Of a stretch of DNA of 64,000 bases, positions 3,000-48,023 are shown one piece after another. The position numbers and the translations under genes are program-made. The stretch is from a bacterium. Lineage in GTDB: Bacteria > Armatimonadota > Fimbriimonadia > Fimbriimonadales > Fimbriimonadaceae. The notes under the pieces are model-generated. The model was not told the origin of the DNA, did no database searches, and saw only the letters and a program-made list of their open reading frames with translations. The stretch lies in assembly GCA_027483535.1 (NCBI GenBank), contig JAIXUN010000001.1:101432-165431 (forward strand), given 5' to 3'. Position 1 is the stretch's first letter. Each line of letters begins with the position of its first letter.

Positions 3000-5432
3000 T
3001 TAGGCGGCTTTCTTGTACGACGGCGTCGTCGTCGCTAGATTCGACCCATCGTCCTTCAGGCGGAACTGTGCGGCGAGCTCTTGCATCTTGACCGCAAGTT
3101 CGCTGAGTTCTGCCGACTGAGCGGTGAGCTCTTCGGTCGCTGCCATCTGCTGTTGAGCGGAGGTGCTGACGCTCTCCACCTGATTCGCGACCTCGTTGGT
3201 CGTTGCCGACATTTCTTGGGCAGCAGCGGCGTTCTCCTCGGCGGCGGCAGCGGCTTGCTCAACAGAGCTCTTCACTCCGTGCGACAAGGTGTCTACACGA
3301 CCCATTCGATTCTCGACTCGCTTTACCGGCTCAGAGAGAGCCTGAACTTGCTCGAGAATGCTCGCGAGCGACTCCTTCGCCGAAGACGAAAGCTTTACGC
3401 CGCTATCGACGGCATCGTTGGCCTCCGACATGGCAGAACTCGACTCGCCGACCAGACCTCGCATCTCCTCGATGAGAGAAGCGATATCGCGGGTAGCTGC
3501 GGCGCACCTTTCGGCGAGCTTTCGGACCTCATCAGCAACAACCGCGAAGCCGCGTCCATGCTCTCCGGCTCGAGCCGCCTCGATGGCGGCGTTCAAGGCA
3601 AGAAGATTGGTTTGACCCGCAATTTCGTCGATGAGATTGACGATCGCTCCGATCTGACCCGACTTCTCGTTCAGGTTCTCAAGACGATTCGCAACCGTGG
3701 CGGTGCGGTTCTTGATCTGATCCATTCCGTCGAGCGTTTGTTGAACAGCCTGACCACCTTGGTTGGCAGTCTTTGCAGCAAGCGTGGTTGCCTGACTGAC
3801 TTCGGTGAGAGCCGTCGTCGCCGACTCAATGGATTCCGCCATTTCGCTCACCTCGTTCATGACCCGATTCAGCAGCATTGCCTGATGCTCGGAAGCCTTA
3901 GCGACTTCGGAAGAAGCATTAGACGTTTCGCCAGAAGCGTGCTGAATGTTGATGGCGCTGTCTGCCACCGACTCGGAGGCGTTCGCAATTTGTCCGGCGG
4001 CACCGGACAACATCTTCGAAAGGTCGGTGACTTTGCCACTCACCTCTTGAAGCGTCTTGATGGTTCCGGCAACGCTCGATACAACGGTTCTCATGGCATG
4101 ACCCATGACATCCTCTTCGGCTTGCGCTCGTTCGTCGTAACGAAGTCGCAGATCACCTGCGGCGATCCTACTTGCCCAGCCCGTGTACTCGCGCATTTTC
4201 GAAACAAGGAACCGCATGCCTGTGGCAAGCCCACCGATTTCGTCGTTACGGCTGTAGCTGATTTCGACGTCGAGATCGCCATGCTGCAATCGGTCGAGCG
4301 CGCCTGCCATTTGCTCGATCGGCTTGGTGATCGAATTTGCGATCATGACCGCTCCGAAAAGGAGGATGGCCACGGTTATGAAAGCGAGGAGTGTGAGTTG
4401 AGAACGCGCGGCATTAGAGGTGGCAAAGAAGTCACTCGCTGCATCAGAAACTAGAACGCTCCACTTGAGCCCCGGATATCCCAGAGCACCCTTGGAGTGG
4501 GTGTAACCAACGGCAACTTCGTTTCCGGAAGCATCTTTGTACACCGAGGTCCCGGATTTTCCGGCGATGGCAGCCTTTGCACCCGGATCTCCCTTTTCAA
4601 CAAGGTTAGCGGCAGCAAATTTTGTTTCGTTGCTCTCGATAGGTTTTTGGGTACCCGCATCCACCATGTAACGGTCCAGAATCAAACCCTTCGAGTCGAT
4701 CAGCGTGAGTACGGGCGACTTCATGCCCGCCTGGGTCATTTCTCCGTGACCCTCGGCGAGGATGTTCTCCACAACCGCCATTCGCGCGTAGTTTCGCCAA
4801 ACGCCGATGACCTTGCCTTTCGCGTCCTTCACAGGGGCACTGAACGCCATGAGAGCACCCGGGTCGTTCTTGAAAATCTGATCCAGGTCCGCGAACTCCG
4901 CGGGTTCGTCTACCCAAGTTCCGGTGAGCTTCTCGGTTTCGACAAACTTGCCTGCAAGGCAGTTTTTGAACCATTCCGAGTTCGCAAAACTCTTCTTGTA
5001 GAGAGACTTGGTGTTGACCGCATTTCCTTCGAAGTCGATGCCGTTAACGGCAACAACACGCCCTTTCAGATCGACCATCATCATGAGGCGATAGACGGGG
5101 CTGTAATTCACCATGTATTTGTTCATGGCGGCGGCGATGGCGTTGTCAGCGGTCGGCTTGTACCAACTGGCCGAGTCTTTGACAACATCGTTCAGTCCAA
5201 AGGCCTGAACGTCACCGTATCGTTCAAAAAGGTTTCGCTCTATCCGACTCACAACGGTTTGAGACTGAGACTGAAGGCTCTCTTCTCTCTGCATCGTGAG
5301 TTGACCAATATTTCCAAGCGCAACAAAGGTGGCAATGATGAGGGGTACCAAGCCAAAGGCTAGGAACATCAGCACCAAGCGGTGCTTCAACGAACGAACT
5401 TTAAACATGTTTTTTCGCGGTCCTGCTCTCAT
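3000..5432 (-). CDS. Methyl-accepting chemotaxis protein (Cache-like sensor, HAMP, MCP signalling domain)
   Basis: Two TM helices, HAMP segment, hairpin-tip motif [37 protein letters not shown]; start may be at 5408. Confidence 0.95.
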
Positions 5433-5663: not shown

Positions 5664-6770
5664 ATGACGAACCCGGATCCTTCGCAAACGCCGAAGGTTC
5701 AGCGGAATGAAGCTATCGACGTCTTGAAGGGGATCGGTATCACATTCGTCCTGCTCAATCACTGCTTCGCGCGAGGATCGCGAAAGTTTTTGGGAATGTC
5801 TGTCGAAGACGATCCGATCTTATACGCCATCAACCGAGCCATCCACTTTGCGGTTCCGGTTTTCCTTTTCATCTCGTGCGCACTTTTGGCAAGGAGTCTG
5901 GCGAAGCGATTTGATATTGGCAAGTACGCCAAGTCTCGCGCGCGGAAGACCCTTGTTCCGTACCTGGTCGCAAGCCTGCTCTACTTCCTCTGGGCGAACG
6001 GAAACCCGTTCACAACCGCCTGGGATTGGCAGCGTTTAGGCGTGAACCTTCTGACAGGCAAGTCATCGTTCCACTTGTACTTCACGGTTGTTTTGCTTCA
6101 GGCAGGTGTAGCAATACCGTTCTTGATTTCGCTGAGCAACGGCAAGAAGTGGTCGATTCCGGTGGCGTTTGGCGCGGGAATTGCCGCGCAACTTGCGGTT
6201 TACGCAGCACAAAGGGCGTTCTTTGGGTGGCAAAATCCAGGCTCGGTCCTGCTGTGGTACATCCTACCGCTCGTCCTAGGAATCGCCGTCGGCATGGATA
6301 CCGAAAGCACGGTTAAGCTCCGAAAGTATCTGCCGCATTTGGGCGTTGCGACACTTGCAGGGCTTTTGGTTTATGTATGGGTTTCGGTTGGGAAGTTCTT
6401 TGAGCACCCCGGAACGAGCGACCAGATCAACGGCTCGTACGCCATCTTCACCGCCACCTTGAGTCTCTTCCTTTGGACGATTGCTCAGGAATGGCCCAAG
6501 GGTATTGCTCGGCAATACTTCAACGCGATTGGGAAGGTGTCTTTGCCCGTTTTCCTGGTTCACCCGTTTGTAATGAGCCTTGCGGGCGGACCGAGGTTGA
6601 CGAACATCTTCTTAGCAATTCCCGGTGGATGGATCTTTTACTTCCTCACCATCGTGAGCGTGAGCTACGGGTTTGCCGTCGCCTTTTCCAAACTTGGCGT
6701 TGGTCGGTGGGTATTGGGTCAGGGTCCGCTCTTTAACAGAATGAAGCCGGCTGCCGTCAAGGCGGGGTAA
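5664..6770 (+). CDS. Acyltransferase 3 family (OafA/WecH-like) membrane O-acyltransferase
   Basis: IDVLKGIGI...VLLNH, FAVPVFLFIS, FHLYF and SLPVFLVHP motifs; multiple TM helices; ORF track starts at 5538, ATG 5664 preferred. Confidence 0.85.
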   Translation: MTNPDPSQTPKVQRNEAIDVLKGIGITFVLLNHCFARGSRKFLGMSVEDDPILYAINRAIHFAVPVFLFISCALLARSLAKRFDIGKYAKSRARKTLVPYLVASLLYFLWANGNPFTTAWDWQRLGVNLLTGKSSFHLYFTVVLLQAGVAIPFLISLSNGKKWSIPVAFGAGIAAQLAVYAAQRAFFGWQNPGSVLLWYILPLVLGIAVGMDTESTVKLRKYLPHLGVATLAGLLVYVWVSVGKFFEHPGTSDQINGSYAIFTATLSLFLWTIAQEWPKGIARQYFNAIGKVSLPVFLVHPFVMSLAGGPRLTNIFLAIPGGWIFYFLTIVSVSYGFAVAFSKLGVGRWVLGQGPLFNRMKPAAVKAG

Positions 6771-6780
6771 CGTCCGACTC

Positions 6781-7635
6781 GTGATCACTGGGATAATCGG
6801 CGTGCTGTCTTCCGTTGTTGGAACTGTCGTTGGGATGAACCGGGCAGGTGGTGACTTCGAAGCGAATCAGTCGCTGATTGTCATGACCTATAACCTGCGT
6901 TACGGCACGGCCCCAGACGGTGAGAACAGTTGGCAGTATCGACGAGAGTCTGTGATCGAGCTCATTCGATCGGTTTCGCCCGACGTGATCGGGGTTCAAG
7001 AAGCCCTCGCCGGACAAATCGATGAGCTTGTCGCGGCTCTCCCGGAGTACGCGGCGTTTGGCGCGGGAAGGGACGACGGATTGCGCGGCGGCGAACACAG
7101 TTCGGTTCTCTACCGCAAGGATCGGTTAGGACTGATCGAGGGCGGGACGAAGTGGATCAGCGCCACCCCAGATAAGCCGGGTTCCAAGGGTCCGGGAGCG
7201 AACCTACCGCGCGTATTCACCTGGGGTGAGTTCGTCACCAATCAGGGATACCGATTCCTCGCTGTTAATGCCCACCTCGATCACCAATCGGATGCGGCCA
7301 GATTGCTCGGCACGACAAACATGCTCGAGTTCGTCAAGGCGCGTGGCACCAAAGCGGCGCTTGTGATGGGCGATTTCAACTGCACTAAGGGAAGCGCTCC
7401 CATAGACGTGCTGGACAAGAGCGGAATTCTGACCCCTGCCCGACCCGCAAAGGGTCCATACGTGACCTTCAACGGATTCAACCCGACGGTTACGGAGGGC
7501 GAGATGATCGATCACATCTTCTTCACCTCGGGCTGGACGATCAATGAAGTGAGTATCGACCGCCGTCTAACCAAGGCGGGCCGAGCCCCCAGCGATCACT
7601 ACCCCGTAATTGCTAAGGTTTCGCTGGTGCCCTGA
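6781..7635 (+). CDS. Endonuclease/exonuclease/phosphatase family protein
   Basis: MTYNLR, PDVIGVQE, NAHLDH, MGDFN, IDHIF, SDHYPV motifs. Confidence 0.92.
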   Translation: MITGIIGVLSSVVGTVVGMNRAGGDFEANQSLIVMTYNLRYGTAPDGENSWQYRRESVIELIRSVSPDVIGVQEALAGQIDELVAALPEYAAFGAGRDDGLRGGEHSSVLYRKDRLGLIEGGTKWISATPDKPGSKGPGANLPRVFTWGEFVTNQGYRFLAVNAHLDHQSDAARLLGTTNMLEFVKARGTKAALVMGDFNCTKGSAPIDVLDKSGILTPARPAKGPYVTFNGFNPTVTEGEMIDHIFFTSGWTINEVSIDRRLTKAGRAPSDHYPVIAKVSLVP

Positions 7636-23397: not shown

Positions 23398-23682
23398 GGG
23401 CGGTTAGCTCAGTGGTAGAGCATCCCGACTTCATCGGGAGTGTCGCCAGATTTCTAGAAAGCCATTCAAGGAATCGGTAAACTTAACTAAGCGGGCGGTT
23501 AGCTCAGTGGTAGAGCATCCCGATTCTATCGGGAGGGTCGCCAGATTCCTAGAAAGCTGTTCAAGGAATCGGTACACTTAACAAAGCGGGCGGTTAGCTC
23601 AGTGGTAGAGCATCCCGACTTCATCGGGAGGGTCGCCAGATTCCTAGAAAGCTATTCAAGGAATCGGTACACTTAACAAAGC
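23398..23682 (+). repeat. Three tandem 95-bp units: tRNA-Val 5' fragment + palindromic pseudo-anticodon arm + promoter-like tail
   Basis: Units start at 23398, 23493, 23588 (tRNA at 23683); first 25 nt identical to the tRNA; unit 1 differs from unit 3 at 5 sites, unit 2 from unit 3 at 4 sites. Confidence 0.97.
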
Positions 23683-23757
23683 GGGCGGTTAGCTCAGTGG
23701 TAGAGCACTTCGTTCACACCGAAGGGGTCGTAGGTTCAAGTCCTATACCGCCCACCA
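23683..23757 (+). tRNA. tRNA-Val (anticodon CAC)
   Basis: GGGCGGT/ACCGCCC acceptor stem, GCTC-AGTGGTA-GAGC D arm, CTTCG-TTCACAC-CGAAG anticodon arm, GTAGG-TTCAAGT-CCTAT T arm, encoded CCA. Confidence 0.97.
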
Positions 23758-23771
23758 TTTTTGAAGGTCCC

Positions 23772-24032
23772 ATGTGGACTCTTTACATCCTCCAAAGCGA
23801 ATCGTCCGGTCGGTTTTACGTCGGCCATACAAACGACATGGTGAGGCGGCTCGAAGAGCATCAATCCGGCCAAACAACCTCAACGCGAAATCGAGGACCC
23901 TGGAAAGTCGTCCACCGCGAGGTGTTCGAATCTAAACAACTCGCTGCGAATAGAGAGCGCCAGATCAAAAGTTGGAAGTCGCGGGTGGCGATTCTAGCTC
24001 TCATCGAGGAGTCCGAAACCGACGATCGGTAG
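23772..24032 (+). CDS. Stand-alone GIY-YIG nuclease (86 aa)
   Basis: MWTLYILQS...FYVGHTND..RRL.EH...T..RGPW.....E.F.....A..RE.QIK.WK: GIY/YIG dyad, conserved Arg, His and Glu. Confidence 0.93.
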   Translation: MWTLYILQSESSGRFYVGHTNDMVRRLEEHQSGQTTSTRNRGPWKVVHREVFESKQLAANRERQIKSWKSRVAILALIEESETDDR

Positions 24033-24087
24033 AGCTTCCCGATTCCATCGGGAGGGTCGTCCCGACCAGTCGGGATACGGCCCACCA
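24028..24087 (+). pseudogene. tRNA 3'-portion mimic with anticodon and T arms replaced by TCCCGA..TCGGGA palindromes
   Basis: GGTAGAGC-T-TCCCGATTCCATCGGGA-GGGTCG-TCCCGACCAGTCGGGA-T-ACGGCCC-ACCA, colinear with tRNA positions 17-75. Confidence 0.85.
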
Positions 24088-24100
24088 CCTCCAGATCCTG

Positions 24101-24289
24101 ATGTGGATCCTCTACATCCTCCATAGTGATTCCTCCGGCCTATTAGGCGAACCCAATCTGCGAATCGATCAGGCTGAAATTCCACCGACTCAACATATAC
24201 GCTCCGTCTTGCAGAGACCAGCCAATACAGAGGTGAATCGCTCGGGTCTGACGACGGGACGAGGAAACCCGACCAACACCCGACCTTAG
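24101..24289 (+). pseudogene. Degenerate second GIY-YIG copy
   Basis: MWILYILHSDSSG versus MWTLYILQSESSG; homology lost after about 13 codons; ATG exactly 329 bp after the first ATG. Confidence 0.8.
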
Positions 24290-45790: not shown

Positions 45791-48023
45791 TCTTGCCCTG
45801 GTCTGTTTCGCTCTCGTAGGCTCCGGTGCTGGCCAATCCAAGTATCTCCAAGCAGGACCGATTCAGGTCGGTGAGATTGCTGGACCCGCTCAGGTGCGAG
45901 CCGGGGAATCCACGGAATACCTCCTCAGTGTTCAGGGGTCTTACGACAACCCTTTTGATCCGAAGCAGATCGATGTGGAGGCGGTCATCGAGAGCGATGG
46001 CCAAACGGTCCTTCGCCGCCCTGCGTTCTTTGCCGAAGACTTTGAGCGTCGGCTTGTCGATGGCAAAGAGGTCGTGCAGAGTATCGGCAAGCGGGGCTGG
46101 CGGGTTCGAGTGAACTTTCCGGCAGCGAAAAGCTACCGGATGACCATCGTCGCGAAGGATCGATCTGGAACCGCCACCTCCAAACCGTTCAACGTATCGG
46201 TATCGAACCCCTCACCCACGAATCCAGGCTTCATTCGCGTTGCTCCCGATCAGAAGTTCTTTCAGTACGAGAACGGAAAACCGTACTTCCCTGTCGGTTC
46301 CAACGTGTGTTGGGGCGGCGATGCGGGCGTGTTCAATTTCGAATCATGGCTCCCGAAATACGCCCAACAAGGTTGCAACTACTTCCGAGTTTGGCTGAGC
46401 CCGACCTGGACAACCTTTGGGATGGAATCGAAGGGATCCAAGACGGATGGCAAGGGTCCAGGATTTCTCTCCCTGGAGGCGGCTTTTAAGCTGGATCGAG
46501 TGATGGAGCTTGCCCAGACGCACCAACTACGCGTCAAGCTCTGCTTTGAAAGCTACAACGTGTTGCGAGACAAAGACGCTTATCCGGCTTGGGAAGATAG
46601 CGTCTACAATCGCGATAACGGGGGTCCGCTTGTGGCCCCTCACCAGTTTTGGCGGGATCCAGACGCGCAGCGGATGTACCGCAACAAGATGCGCTATTTG
46701 GTGGCTCGCTATGGGGCAGATCCGAACGTGTTCGCCTGGGAGTTCTGGAACGAGGCGGACCTCACGAGAGACTTCCCAGCGGAGGAAGCCCGGGAGTGGC
46801 ATCGGGAGATGGGGGGTTATCTCCGCTCGATCGACGCCTACAAGCACTTGATCACCACGAGTTTTAGCAACGCGATGGGCGTTCGGGCGATCGACACGAT
46901 TCCCGAGATCGACTTCATTCAGACCCACCACTACGGCGGTCCCGATGTGATCTCGCAAGTGGCCATTCAGCAATCTCGAAAAGGGGGCTGGAACAAGCCG
47001 CATTACGTTGGGGAAATCGGAGCCGATTTCACCGGACCGCGTGCCTCGGACGACCCGGAAGGGCTACAGATTCACGATCCGCTCTGGATCAGCACGTGTA
47101 TGGGTTCGAGCGGAGCAGCGATGCCTTGGTGGTGGGATAGCCACATTGAGCCGTTCAACCTCTATCCGCTGTTTGGAGCGTTGGCGAGATTTGTGAAGGA
47201 CATCGACTTCCCGAACGAGGGCTTTCGACAAACCACTCCAAAATTCGCTTGGCAGTCGCCCGCACAGTCGGTGGCGCTTCGCGACCTAACTGTTCCGTCC
47301 GCGGCGGGCGTGTGGGAAGACTCGCCTTTGCATAAACCGAAGACGGTAGTGATCAACAAGGATGGCAAACCCGTATCCGGCGCGCCGATCGCCTCGTTCT
47401 TCCACGGAAGGCGGAACCACCCCAGTTGGTCCAATCCGGTGACGATCCAGGTCGATCTTCCCAGGAAGACGCGTTTCGACGTTGTTGTCGGCGATGTGTC
47501 TGGCTACGGTGGGGCTCGGCTGGAGATTCAGCTCGATAACCAAGTGGTGATGACGAGGGACTTTAGCGATCCTGACGACAACTCGAAGACAGATTCATTG
47601 ACCTCATATCGGGGGGCATACGGTTTCGATGTCTCCGCGGGCAAGCATACGATCGTGGTTCGAAACACGGGGAACGACTGGTTTGAAGCGAGCCTGCGAT
47701 TCAAGAATCTTCAACAGACCCTCACACCGCCTCTTATCGGCTGGGGCACGGTGGGTGATTCAGTAGTGTTGGCATGGGCTCGACTGGCCGACCGAACTTG
47801 GAAGAGAGTGTGTGAGAACAAGGAAACCATTCCGGCCTGCCCACCTTCCATTCTCACCATGAGCGGACTAGCGGCAGGCACATATGAGACCGAGATTTGG
47901 GATACCTGGAAAGGAGCCGCGATTCAGAGTCAAACCATTCGCGTAGGACTTGATGGAGTGCTTCGCGTAAGGCTTCCCGAAATGGATCGGGACTTCGCGG
48001 TGAAAGCCGTTCTTAAGCAGTAA
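45783..48023 (+). CDS. DUF5060-like domain + clan GH-A (GH5-like) glycoside hydrolase
   Basis: Y.NPFDP.QIDV N-domain; AWEFWNE acid/base and HYVGEIG nucleophile motifs. Confidence 0.82.
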   Translation: MTNLALVCFALVGSGAGQSKYLQAGPIQVGEIAGPAQVRAGESTEYLLSVQGSYDNPFDPKQIDVEAVIESDGQTVLRRPAFFAEDFERRLVDGKEVVQSIGKRGWRVRVNFPAAKSYRMTIVAKDRSGTATSKPFNVSVSNPSPTNPGFIRVAPDQKFFQYENGKPYFPVGSNVCWGGDAGVFNFESWLPKYAQQGCNYFRVWLSPTWTTFGMESKGSKTDGKGPGFLSLEAAFKLDRVMELAQTHQLRVKLCFESYNVLRDKDAYPAWEDSVYNRDNGGPLVAPHQFWRDPDAQRMYRNKMRYLVARYGADPNVFAWEFWNEADLTRDFPAEEAREWHREMGGYLRSIDAYKHLITTSFSNAMGVRAIDTIPEIDFIQTHHYGGPDVISQVAIQQSRKGGWNKPHYVGEIGADFTGPRASDDPEGLQIHDPLWISTCMGSSGAAMPWWWDSHIEPFNLYPLFGALARFVKDIDFPNEGFRQTTPKFAWQSPAQSVALRDLTVPSAAGVWEDSPLHKPKTVVINKDGKPVSGAPIASFFHGRRNHPSWSNPVTIQVDLPRKTRFDVVVGDVSGYGGARLEIQLDNQVVMTRDFSDPDDNSKTDSLTSYRGAYGFDVSAGKHTIVVRNTGNDWFEASLRFKNLQQTLTPPLIGWGTVGDSVVLAWARLADRTWKRVCENKETIPACPPSILTMSGLAAGTYETEIWDTWKGAAIQSQTIRVGLDGVLRVRLPEMDRDFAVKAVLKQ

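Follow-up and report, generated by a model that had tools for sequence, protein, structure and literature searches.

A conserved palindromic hairpin in tRNA pseudo-copies beside genes for minimal Slx1-like GIY-YIG nucleases

Why should one short palindrome take the place of two different arms in degenerate copies of a tRNA gene, and why should a small nuclease gene stand among those copies? The question is raised by a 64,000-nucleotide stretch of the genome of a member of the Fimbriimonadaceae (Armatimonadota; assembly GCA_027483535.1, contig JAIXUN010000001.1, positions 101,432 to 165,431), referred to here as the window. Five palindromes with the half-sites TCCCGA and TCGGGA lie about a functional tRNA-Val gene and an open reading frame (ORF) for an 86-residue GIY-YIG nuclease. 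The link to GIY-YIG genes that a sequence-only reading of the window had proposed holds elsewhere: the hairpin was found in approximately 80% of 160 loci (80 genome loci and an independent 80 metagenome loci, numbered L below) picked by similarity to the protein alone. The reading that we prefer, which the comparison of sequences leaves about evenly balanced between right and wrong, is that the palindrome would be the cis-acting hairpin of a widespread selfish element that resides in tRNA genes, has a minimal Slx1-like GIY-YIG nuclease at its core, and spreads when tRNA copies recombine. The features of the locus are as follows.

23398..23492, + strand: unit 1 of a 95-bp tandem array, consisting of tRNA-Val positions 1-48 with the anticodon arm replaced by palindrome 23423-23439 (TCCCGACTTCATCGGGA), then a 47-nt spacer with its own hairpin
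23493..23587, + strand: unit 2 of the array, laid out as unit 1, with palindrome 23518-23534 (TCCCGATTCTATCGGGA); not a tRNA
23588..23682, + strand: unit 3 of the array, laid out as unit 1, with palindrome 23613-23629 (TCCCGACTTCATCGGGA)
23683..23757, + strand: functional tRNA-Val(CAC) with native anticodon arm CTTCGTTCACACCGAAG, called by ARAGORN and scoring 71.1 bits as an Rfam tRNA
23772..24032, + strand: GIY-YIG nuclease gene, 86 aa, of the minimal UPF0213 or bacterial Slx1-like type, assigned by PF01541, PDB 1zg2, and conserved residues
24028..24087, + strand: 3' pseudo-copy of tRNA-Val, from the 3' strand of the D arm to CCA, with two arms replaced
24037..24053, + strand: palindrome in the anticodon arm of the 3' pseudo-copy (TCCCGATTCCATCGGGA)
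24060..24075, + strand: palindrome in the T arm of the 3' pseudo-copy (TCCCGACCAGTCGGGA)
24101..24141, + strand: stump of a second GIY-YIG gene (MWILYILHSDSSG...), of which about 39 nt can be aligned with the start of the intact gene

The palindrome and the nuclease in the window

All five palindromes are present where the sequence-only reading had placed them, and its expectation that the motif would exceed chance is borne out, with six occurrences of TCCCGA-N3-7-TCGGGA in the window, where 100 shuffles that preserve dinucleotides give 0.09 +/- 0.32. The sixth occurrence, at 47975-47992 (TCCCGAAATGGATCGGGA), is near the end of a 746-aa ORF that has no Pfam match and lies directly upstream of a gene for a FAD-binding, fumarate-reductase-like flavoprotein; with neither a tRNA nor a GIY-YIG gene in its context, it is probably there by chance. 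Two finer claims survive in part. The flank GGGTCG, described as kept in register after the palindrome, reads GTGTCG in unit 1. The replacement, described as length-preserving, does exchange 17 nt for 17 nt in the anticodon arms of the window, while the T arm went from 15 nt to 16 nt. As a general rule length preservation fails, since the total arm length in relatives ranges from 15 to 21 nt, and is 17 nt in just 43 of 126 distinct versions; in the window it is a local accident.

The array is a tandem repeat of period 95 bp, with 3.3 copies and 94% matches, running from 23398 to 23682. ARAGORN calls only one tRNA at the locus, at 23683-23757; unit 2 scores 24.4 bits against the Rfam tRNA model, below the gathering score of 29, and an Rfam search of the locus at E <= 10 returns tRNA-type matches only. 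The upstream units lack the T arm and 3' acceptor strand, and the downstream copy lacks the 5' acceptor strand. The nuclease gene starts 14 nt past the end of the tRNA-Val gene, and its TAG stop codon falls within the GGTAGAGC of the 3' pseudo-tRNA. The stump directly 3' of that pseudo-tRNA comprises the first 13 or so codons of a second nuclease gene (the ORF that reads through it, 24101-24289, has no Pfam match), so the locus once had at least two units of gene plus pseudo-tRNA. As part of the selfish-element reading, and held with the same evenly divided belief, the window would contain a single composite copy, made up of the three 5' pseudo-copies without a gene, the functional tRNA-Val, its neighbouring nuclease gene, the 3' pseudo-copy with its two hairpins, and the stump.

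The protein matches PF01541 with E 4.9e-16 and 59 bits, against a cut-off of 22.6. Its nearest relatives of solved structure are UPF0213 proteins, namely PDB 1zg2 (BH0048, E 2e-8) and 1ywl (EF2693, E 1.8e-5), and the match to SLX1 is weak (E 0.15). An alignment of 11 sequences from across phyla shows Y16, G18, R26, H30, and E62 to be invariant and Y5 nearly so, and the stretch RERQIKSWK is invariant as well. The 86 residues make up a single domain, with no fused DNA-binding domain of the kind found in I-TevI and the Seg proteins. On these grounds, the enzyme looks active and of a structure-specific nuclease lineage. The bacterial minimal Slx1-like proteins have been viewed, by prediction from sequence, as putative repair enzymes; their lineage lacks the C-terminal Asn, and its eukaryotic members are structure-specific endonucleases that act on branched DNA (PMC1564403).

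The family is large, with 7,096 cluster representatives at E <= 1e-3. The two best-scoring, P0001 and P0002, have 205-214 residues and two GIY-YIG stretches, and may be gene calls that read through tandem units. A look-up of the exact protein found no other place that encodes the identical 86 residues. NCBIfam gave only a sub-threshold match to a group I intron endonuclease, and neither PADLOC (anti-phage defence) nor PHROGs (phage proteins) gave any. The family is nearly absent from the phage and plasmid collections, with two weak matches in each.

Recurrence of the hairpin beside related genes

In the 80 genome loci, the nearest relatives of the nuclease, at 70%, are those of other Armatimonadota; further carriers belong to Acidobacteriota, Bacteroidota, Chloroflexota, Verrucomicrobiota, Ignavibacteria, and Patescibacteria, with a few proteobacteria. 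Cultured carriers include Mucilaginibacter terrigena 17JY9-4, Parapedobacter indicus RK1, Flavipsychrobacter stenotrophus, and Pontibacter locisalis. Of the 80 loci, 22 have the palindrome exactly as in the window, and 55 have the core TCCCG-N3-11-CGGGA. The loci encode 100 nuclease ORFs. A hairpin lies near 76 of them, and for 60 its start falls at -20 to +24 nt relative to the stop codon; in 50, the end of a tRNA lies just upstream of the ORF frame. The metagenome set agrees, with a hairpin in 64 of 80 loci, just past the stop codon in 54, and a native tRNA upstream in 54. Most nuclease genes sit just 3' of a tRNA gene on the same strand, mainly for Val or Ala, and also for Pro, Asn, Lys, or Arg. 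The hairpin usually stands where the anticodon arm would be in a pseudo-copy of the adjacent tRNA (Val, Ala, Pro, Ile, Lys, Asn, and others); within Armatimonadota alone it occurs in pseudo-copies of tRNA-Val, Ala, Pro, and Ile. A nuclease gene beside a conserved host gene, distributed patchily across at least eight phyla, is a trait typical of homing endonucleases.

Amplification has taken two forms. Tandem 5' pseudo-copies bearing the hairpin are found upstream of a working tRNA in unrelated lineages, in arrays of six units (L011 and L016), eight or more (L024), four (L079), nine (L112), and twelve (L155). In other loci whole units of gene plus pseudo-tRNA have been multiplied (L074, L075, and L078, repeating every 350 bp, and L056, L010, and L116). 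Several individual loci are worth recording. In L116, the first of two tandem units lacks the left half of the palindrome and the loop (1790-1815, GGTAGAGC-TTTCGGGA), and the second is intact. L112 has nine tRNA-Lys pseudo-units, a real tRNA-Lys, and then an array of tRNA-Pro pseudo-units with TCCCGCCTTAGGCGGGA (5886-6960); no nuclease gene was found within the 8 kb examined there. Pseudo-copies are sometimes called as tRNAs by tRNA detectors, as in L049 and L045.

One clade of the protein tree, from Patescibacteria, lacks the compact hairpin. Its members have TCCCGA 24-32 nt before the conserved N-terminal motif, and in the loci that were read through, TCGGGA follows 10-60 nt past the stop codon. 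The gene therefore lies between the two half-sites, which are about 350 nt apart. These half-sites would be either the ends of inserted DNA or a split target, and the compact hairpin of the window would correspond to two such ends abutted. The clade also has a perfect palindrome of its own, TCGAGGATCCTCGA, just 3' of the ORF; other palindromes peculiar to nuclease clades occur within the family. In L044, L059, and L060, the left copy of the tRNA reaches no further than anticodon position 35, with a complete tRNA beyond the insert, and in L017 and L018 the hosts are protein genes, with a stretch of host gene duplicated on both sides. In L040, Saccharibacteria tRNA genes are interrupted, in the D arm (TAG^CTCAG) and in the T loop (GGTT^CGAATCC), by gene-less pieces of 50-56 nt (2922-2971 and 3449-3504) that end in TCCCGA...TCGGGA and enclose a TCGCGGATCCTCGA palindrome. 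They are at most candidates for miniature inverted-repeat elements (MITEs), a kind of element defined by terminal inverted repeats, lack of an ORF, and multiple insertions with target duplication. In two other Saccharibacteria loci, the family member has directly upstream of it another GIY-YIG ORF that is clearly distinct (L021 2531-2944; L032 997-1263).

Pairing in the stem and exchange of tRNA arms

Stems were surveyed by tRNA context only, blind to the stem sequence. Fifteen different anticodon stems occur in the functional neighbour tRNAs, of which one in 58 has TCCCG; among the pseudo-copies that stem is present in 76 of 97, and CCCCG, CTCCG, or TTCCG in most of the others. The variant stems have a matching 3' strand (CCCCGG..CCGGGG, CTCCGA..TCGGAG, TTCCGG..CCGGAA). 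In its general form, the hairpin has YCCCG/CGGGR as its basal stem, followed by a distal stem that is free and by a small loop. Past the five core pairs, pairs 6 and 7 vary freely yet remain complementary: pair 6 is A-T in 75 cases, G-C in 29, and C-G in 7, and pair 7 is T-A in 52, C-G in 23, and A-T in 8. Folded as single-stranded DNA, the palindromes reach -5.0 to -5.9 kcal/mol, against -2.2 for the native anticodon arm and -0.4 for the native T arm. Because spacing varies while pairing is kept, the alignments argue for recognition as an intrastrand hairpin, whether cruciform, single-stranded DNA, or RNA, over recognition by a rigid dimer on B-form DNA. Protein identity has fallen to 40-50%, yet 10-12 stem bases stay the same, which makes the stem the only conserved non-coding part of the unit.

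Recurrence with homologous genes in at least eight phyla, presence in pseudo-copies of at least ten tRNA species, the TCCCG stem of most pseudo-copies, and paired changes together support selection on the motif and its tie to the GIY-YIG gene. The earlier suggestion of a protein-recognised site under selection is upheld to that extent, and the nuclease is the candidate for the protein that does the recognising. We also agree that random decay of a pseudo-tRNA is unable to explain the motif. The contrast drawn between invariant stems and variable loops fares less well: three of five loop columns vary in the window, against 9 of 90 columns elsewhere, but across 21 arrays in other genomes the counts are 13 of 97 and 255 of 1655 (p = 0.67). 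Loop hypervariability as a footprint of repeated cutting, seen in the window and in L079, was accordingly dropped as a general feature. Single stem mismatches on the sense strand comprise four T.G and one C.A, too few to choose between RNA and DNA. The loop keeps the anticodon of the neighbouring tRNA in 16 of 174 cases, against 9.7 +/- 2.6 expected, a weak excess in which five of the 16 are artefacts of the stem CGG.

How the arm came to be exchanged is suggested by what surrounds it. The 25 nt on the 3' side of the hairpin have a median identity of 84% to the tRNA of the same locus, against 60% to a random tRNA, and the upstream and downstream hairpins of one locus differ by no more than 1 nt in 20 of 46 loci, against 1.8% of random pairs. 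Near-identical copies with flanks from the local tRNA imply a recent local origin of the copies from one another, by duplication or gene conversion. The D arm and the region of the variable loop and T stem are nearly the same in all these tRNAs, so recombination leaves only the arm visibly exchanged. Recombination of a hairpin-bearing copy with a native one would thus be a simpler account of the in-register swap than a mechanism dedicated to converting any stem-loop into the motif. The latter, which the sequence-only reading had put forward, is not supported here: ordinary recombination between tRNA-like repeats would yield the swap of the anticodon arm, and replacements of the T or D arm are rare.

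The recombination account leaves out those rarer cases in which the hairpin is found elsewhere. It occupies the T arm in the window and in L002, and is nested in the T loop in L142. A variant, CCCCGCC..GGCGGGG, replaces the D arm in L054 and L055, only the 5' half of the anticodon arm is replaced in L048 and L073, and in L061 the hairpin is outside any tRNA. Its occurrence in other arms and outside tRNA indicates that the hairpin belongs to the nuclease gene and not to the tRNA. A cut site at a fixed distance, considered from the points at which units are truncated, was rejected, as the end points are scattered.

The sequence-only reading took a match of the palindrome to the native anticodon arm of another tRNA of the genome, which would point to a simple chimera, as grounds against itself; this objection holds in part, since in some other phyla there is such a match. 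Among the matches listed, natural tRNA-Val genes with a TCCCG/CGGGA stem and a normal 7-nt loop occur in L086, L089, L105, L120, L150, and L162, from Patescibacteria, Verrucomicrobia, Acidobacteria, and Actinobacteria. The hairpin is probably derived, to judge from this identity of stems, from the anticodon arm of tRNA-Val, the family's commonest host and probably its ancestral home. Such an origin cannot account for the persistence and spread of the motif: it points to a source, and leaves unexplained why the motif persists in Ala, Pro, Ile, Lys, and Asn copies, or stands in other arms and outside tRNA. A full-length tRNA-Ala(GGC) gene in Algibacter (L125, 5662-5736) has the palindromic stem with a normal 7-nt loop (TCCCG-ATGGCAT-CGGGA), and may be a working tRNA that took up the stem.

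The remaining observations concern the locus of the window. Each array unit has a second hairpin (23446-23477, 23541-23572, and 23636-23667), of the form CCAGATTCCT-N13-AGGAATCGG, with nine pairs and one bulged A in units 2 and 3 and one further T-G pair in unit 1. Alignments of the 47-nt spacer at this locus to the 3' end of the ORF, the tRNA leader, and trailers did not rise above shuffles. In two freshwater metagenome runs, DNA contigs confirm the repeat: depth over the contig of the repeat unit (window 23476-23616) is 83.6, about 4.6 times the 17.9 of the flanks. The real array probably has more than three units, and the assembly of the window may be collapsed. No RNA run was found to include the locus. 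A 110-kb contig of "organism A" (run X6) tracks the window from 23678 to 24047 and then continues in unrelated sequence, departing within the loop of palindrome 24037-24053. The flanking ORFs encode a Kdo-transferase-like protein and a PEP-CTERM protein.

A selfish element, its rivals, and known systems

Under the selfish-element reading, the nuclease would recognise the hairpin, as a cruciform or a single-stranded DNA hairpin, as its cognate DNA site. Breaks or nicks there would be mended by homologous recombination with a neighbouring or sister tRNA-like sequence; homology supplied by the D arm and by the variable-loop and T-arm flanks would move the arm exactly in register and would duplicate units, and repair would occasionally take the gene to another tRNA gene. 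Converted copies would later lose the acceptor or T arm, disabled because a mis-decoding tRNA would be harmful. More tentatively, and with less confidence than in the reading as such, we propose a new class of nuclease-only mobile element, in which a Slx1-like GIY-YIG enzyme of about 90 residues would read a hairpin or cruciform and, with host repair, would write the hairpin, sometimes together with itself, into tRNA stem-loops (anticodon, T, or D arm), leaving autonomous, miniature, and tandem copies across most non-proteobacterial phyla. That would amount to replacement of stem-loops at the DNA level, close to what the sequence-only reading had guessed.

Several points weigh against a selfish element of this kind. 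It is paradoxical that a cleavage target should persist beside its own nuclease, in arrays of up to 12, although the hairpin may be bound or nicked rather than cut. Across arrays the loops are no mutation hot spots, and there is no visible mark of repeated cutting. The 3' ends of truncated units range from 6 nt past the hairpin to nearly full length. The protein, as a single 86-residue domain, has no obvious DNA-binding module. A search of the genome collection for the motif in tRNA context gave at least 120 stretches; among the matches listed, a nuclease gene was within 260 bp in 38 of 120, and of those without a close gene many lie near the ends of stretches, while others are gene-less arrays or ordinary tRNA-Val genes. 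Finally, no empty-site allele was found by way of the flanking genes: the contigs of the two close Fimbriimonas relatives that were found end inside or near the array, and the search with the downstream gene reached no contig spanning the locus.

The main rival places the hairpin's role in RNA, which we consider possible at a rather low probability. In the transcript, the hairpin would bind protein, as an operator or as a decoy, and would hold a toxic nuclease in check in the manner of a type III repeat-RNA antitoxin, or else it would stabilise the 3' end of the nuclease mRNA, displayed on a tRNA-like scaffold that is transcribed together with the tRNA from its promoter. In nearly all cases the pseudo-copies share the strand of the gene and adjoin tRNA and ORF, the start of the hairpin is at most about 25 nt from the stop codon in 60 of 100 ORFs, and the position of the arrays, in the leader of the tRNA and upstream of the gene, recalls that of toxI repeats upstream of toxN. 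Pairing is kept and spacing is not, as an RNA structure would allow, and the excess of T.G over C.A on the sense strand is in the expected direction, although a ratio of 4 to 1 from so small a count has little weight. Against this, all characterised GIY-YIG enzymes act on DNA (PMC1564403). The Patescibacteria half-sites some 350 nt apart and the miniature copies in D and T loops of tRNA genes point to insertion at the DNA level, no U-tract terminator lies 3' of the hairpin, and many arrays have no gene in cis.

An improbable alternative is that the palindrome is a passive relic, an ancestral tRNA-Val anticodon arm shuffled into other copies by ordinary recombination and without function. It would account readily for the exact TCCCG/CGGGA stem with a 7-nt loop in natural tRNA-Val of four phyla, for the register of the swap, for 17 nt as the commonest arm length, and for the minority of loops that retain the anticodon of the adjacent tRNA (16 of 174, where 9.7 would be expected). 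It leaves unexplained why 10-12 stem bases should remain constant while proteins diverge to 40-50% identity and loops are randomised, why the stem should be maintained by paired changes and found in 76 of 97 pseudo-copies beside at least ten tRNA species, or why the hairpin should also be found in T and D arms and outside tRNA, and why some nuclease clades should have palindromes of their own.

Classical homing-endonuclease logic would suggest an immunity allele, in which the nuclease targets the native anticodon arm and the palindrome is a cleavage-resistant replacement copied by homing; we think this quite unlikely. The end of similarity in the left tRNA copy after position 35, at the apex of the anticodon loop (L044, L059, and L060), speaks in its favour. 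However, at least 15 different host anticodon arms offer no common target, the working tRNA beside the gene retains its native arm, and mere resistance does not require an identical sequence in eight phyla. Attachment-site scars of an integrase-driven island at a tRNA gene, for which partial tRNA duplications are typical, are very improbable, given that the locus has no tyrosine or serine recombinase gene and is bordered by the Kdo-transferase-like and PEP-CTERM genes, that its repeats are tandem 5' parts rather than a distant 3' end, and that the arm swap would be left unexplained.

If the selfish-element reading is correct, it would supply a role and a candidate substrate for a very large family without assigned function, two structural-genomics proteins included, and would explain pseudo-tRNA arrays that break assemblies and are at times mis-called as tRNAs. 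Cellular genomes would then be shown to have their tRNA gene clusters remodelled by selfish DNA, as happens in phages through SegB. An 86-residue enzyme that really reads a stem of 5-6 bp would be among the smallest sequence- and structure-specific nucleases known, and could serve as a model for the choice of branched DNA by Slx1-type enzymes. In the literature, subscription journals not covered, we came across no account of UPF0213 genes that are linked to tRNA genes and have a conserved palindrome, nor of pseudo-tRNA arrays of this type, and no papers on YhbQ together with GIY-YIG. We would class the finding as a homing-endonuclease-like selfish gene at tRNA genes, which is known in kind, with a hairpin in tRNA pseudo-copies that is new to the literature found.

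Among known systems, group I introns in the anticodon loops of bacterial tRNA genes also have a selfish homing-nuclease gene seated in a tRNA gene at that loop, and the Patescibacteria-type loci have their break after position 35. They differ in that the non-coding sequence here is under about 100 nt, leaving no room for a ribozyme, and in that a complete tRNA copy stands alongside the insert, so no splicing is needed. The type III toxin-antitoxin system ToxIN likewise has short tandem repeats that lie upstream of a small nuclease gene and share its transcript. ToxN differs in fold and is an endoribonuclease, which its own processed repeats neutralise, whereas the nuclease here is of a DNase family, a tRNA lies between array and gene, and many loci have no array; at the locus of the window there was no PADLOC match and no terminator between array and gene. 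The IS200/IS605 and REP/RAYT systems join a short conserved cis hairpin and amplified gene-less miniatures to one small nuclease-type gene, and the loci of this family likewise have a conserved cis hairpin, gene-less amplified copies, and one small nuclease gene. Their HUH/Y1 transposases rejoin DNA themselves. No such transposase is present here, where the only linked gene is GIY-YIG and the target is the arms of tRNA; a GIY-YIG nuclease cannot rejoin DNA, so any movement must make use of host repair.

The UPF0213 or bacterial Slx1-like proteins, together with eukaryotic Slx1, are alike in sequence family and size, although a 2006 survey makes no mention of a cognate hairpin, tRNA linkage, or mobility (PMC1564403). 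The closest precedent, by analogy, is SegB, a phage GIY-YIG endonuclease encoded beside tRNA genes, where breaks and homologous recombination give rise to tandem repeats of tRNA plus segB (PMC13096335). Those repeats involve microhomology that the tRNA's 5' end shares with the gene's 3' end (PMC13096335). SegB is a larger phage protein, of Seg and I-TevI types that have DNA-binding modules, unlike the 86-residue single Slx1-like domain; the element described here is chromosomal and nearly absent from phage and plasmid collections, and we found no report for SegB of a hairpin in tRNA pseudo-copies. In the tRNA cluster of T4-like phages, with its SegB and other free-standing Seg-type homing endonucleases, as in the present family, a GIY-YIG gene stands directly beside tRNA genes; tandem units are formed by segB with tRNA and by the present gene with pseudo-tRNA.

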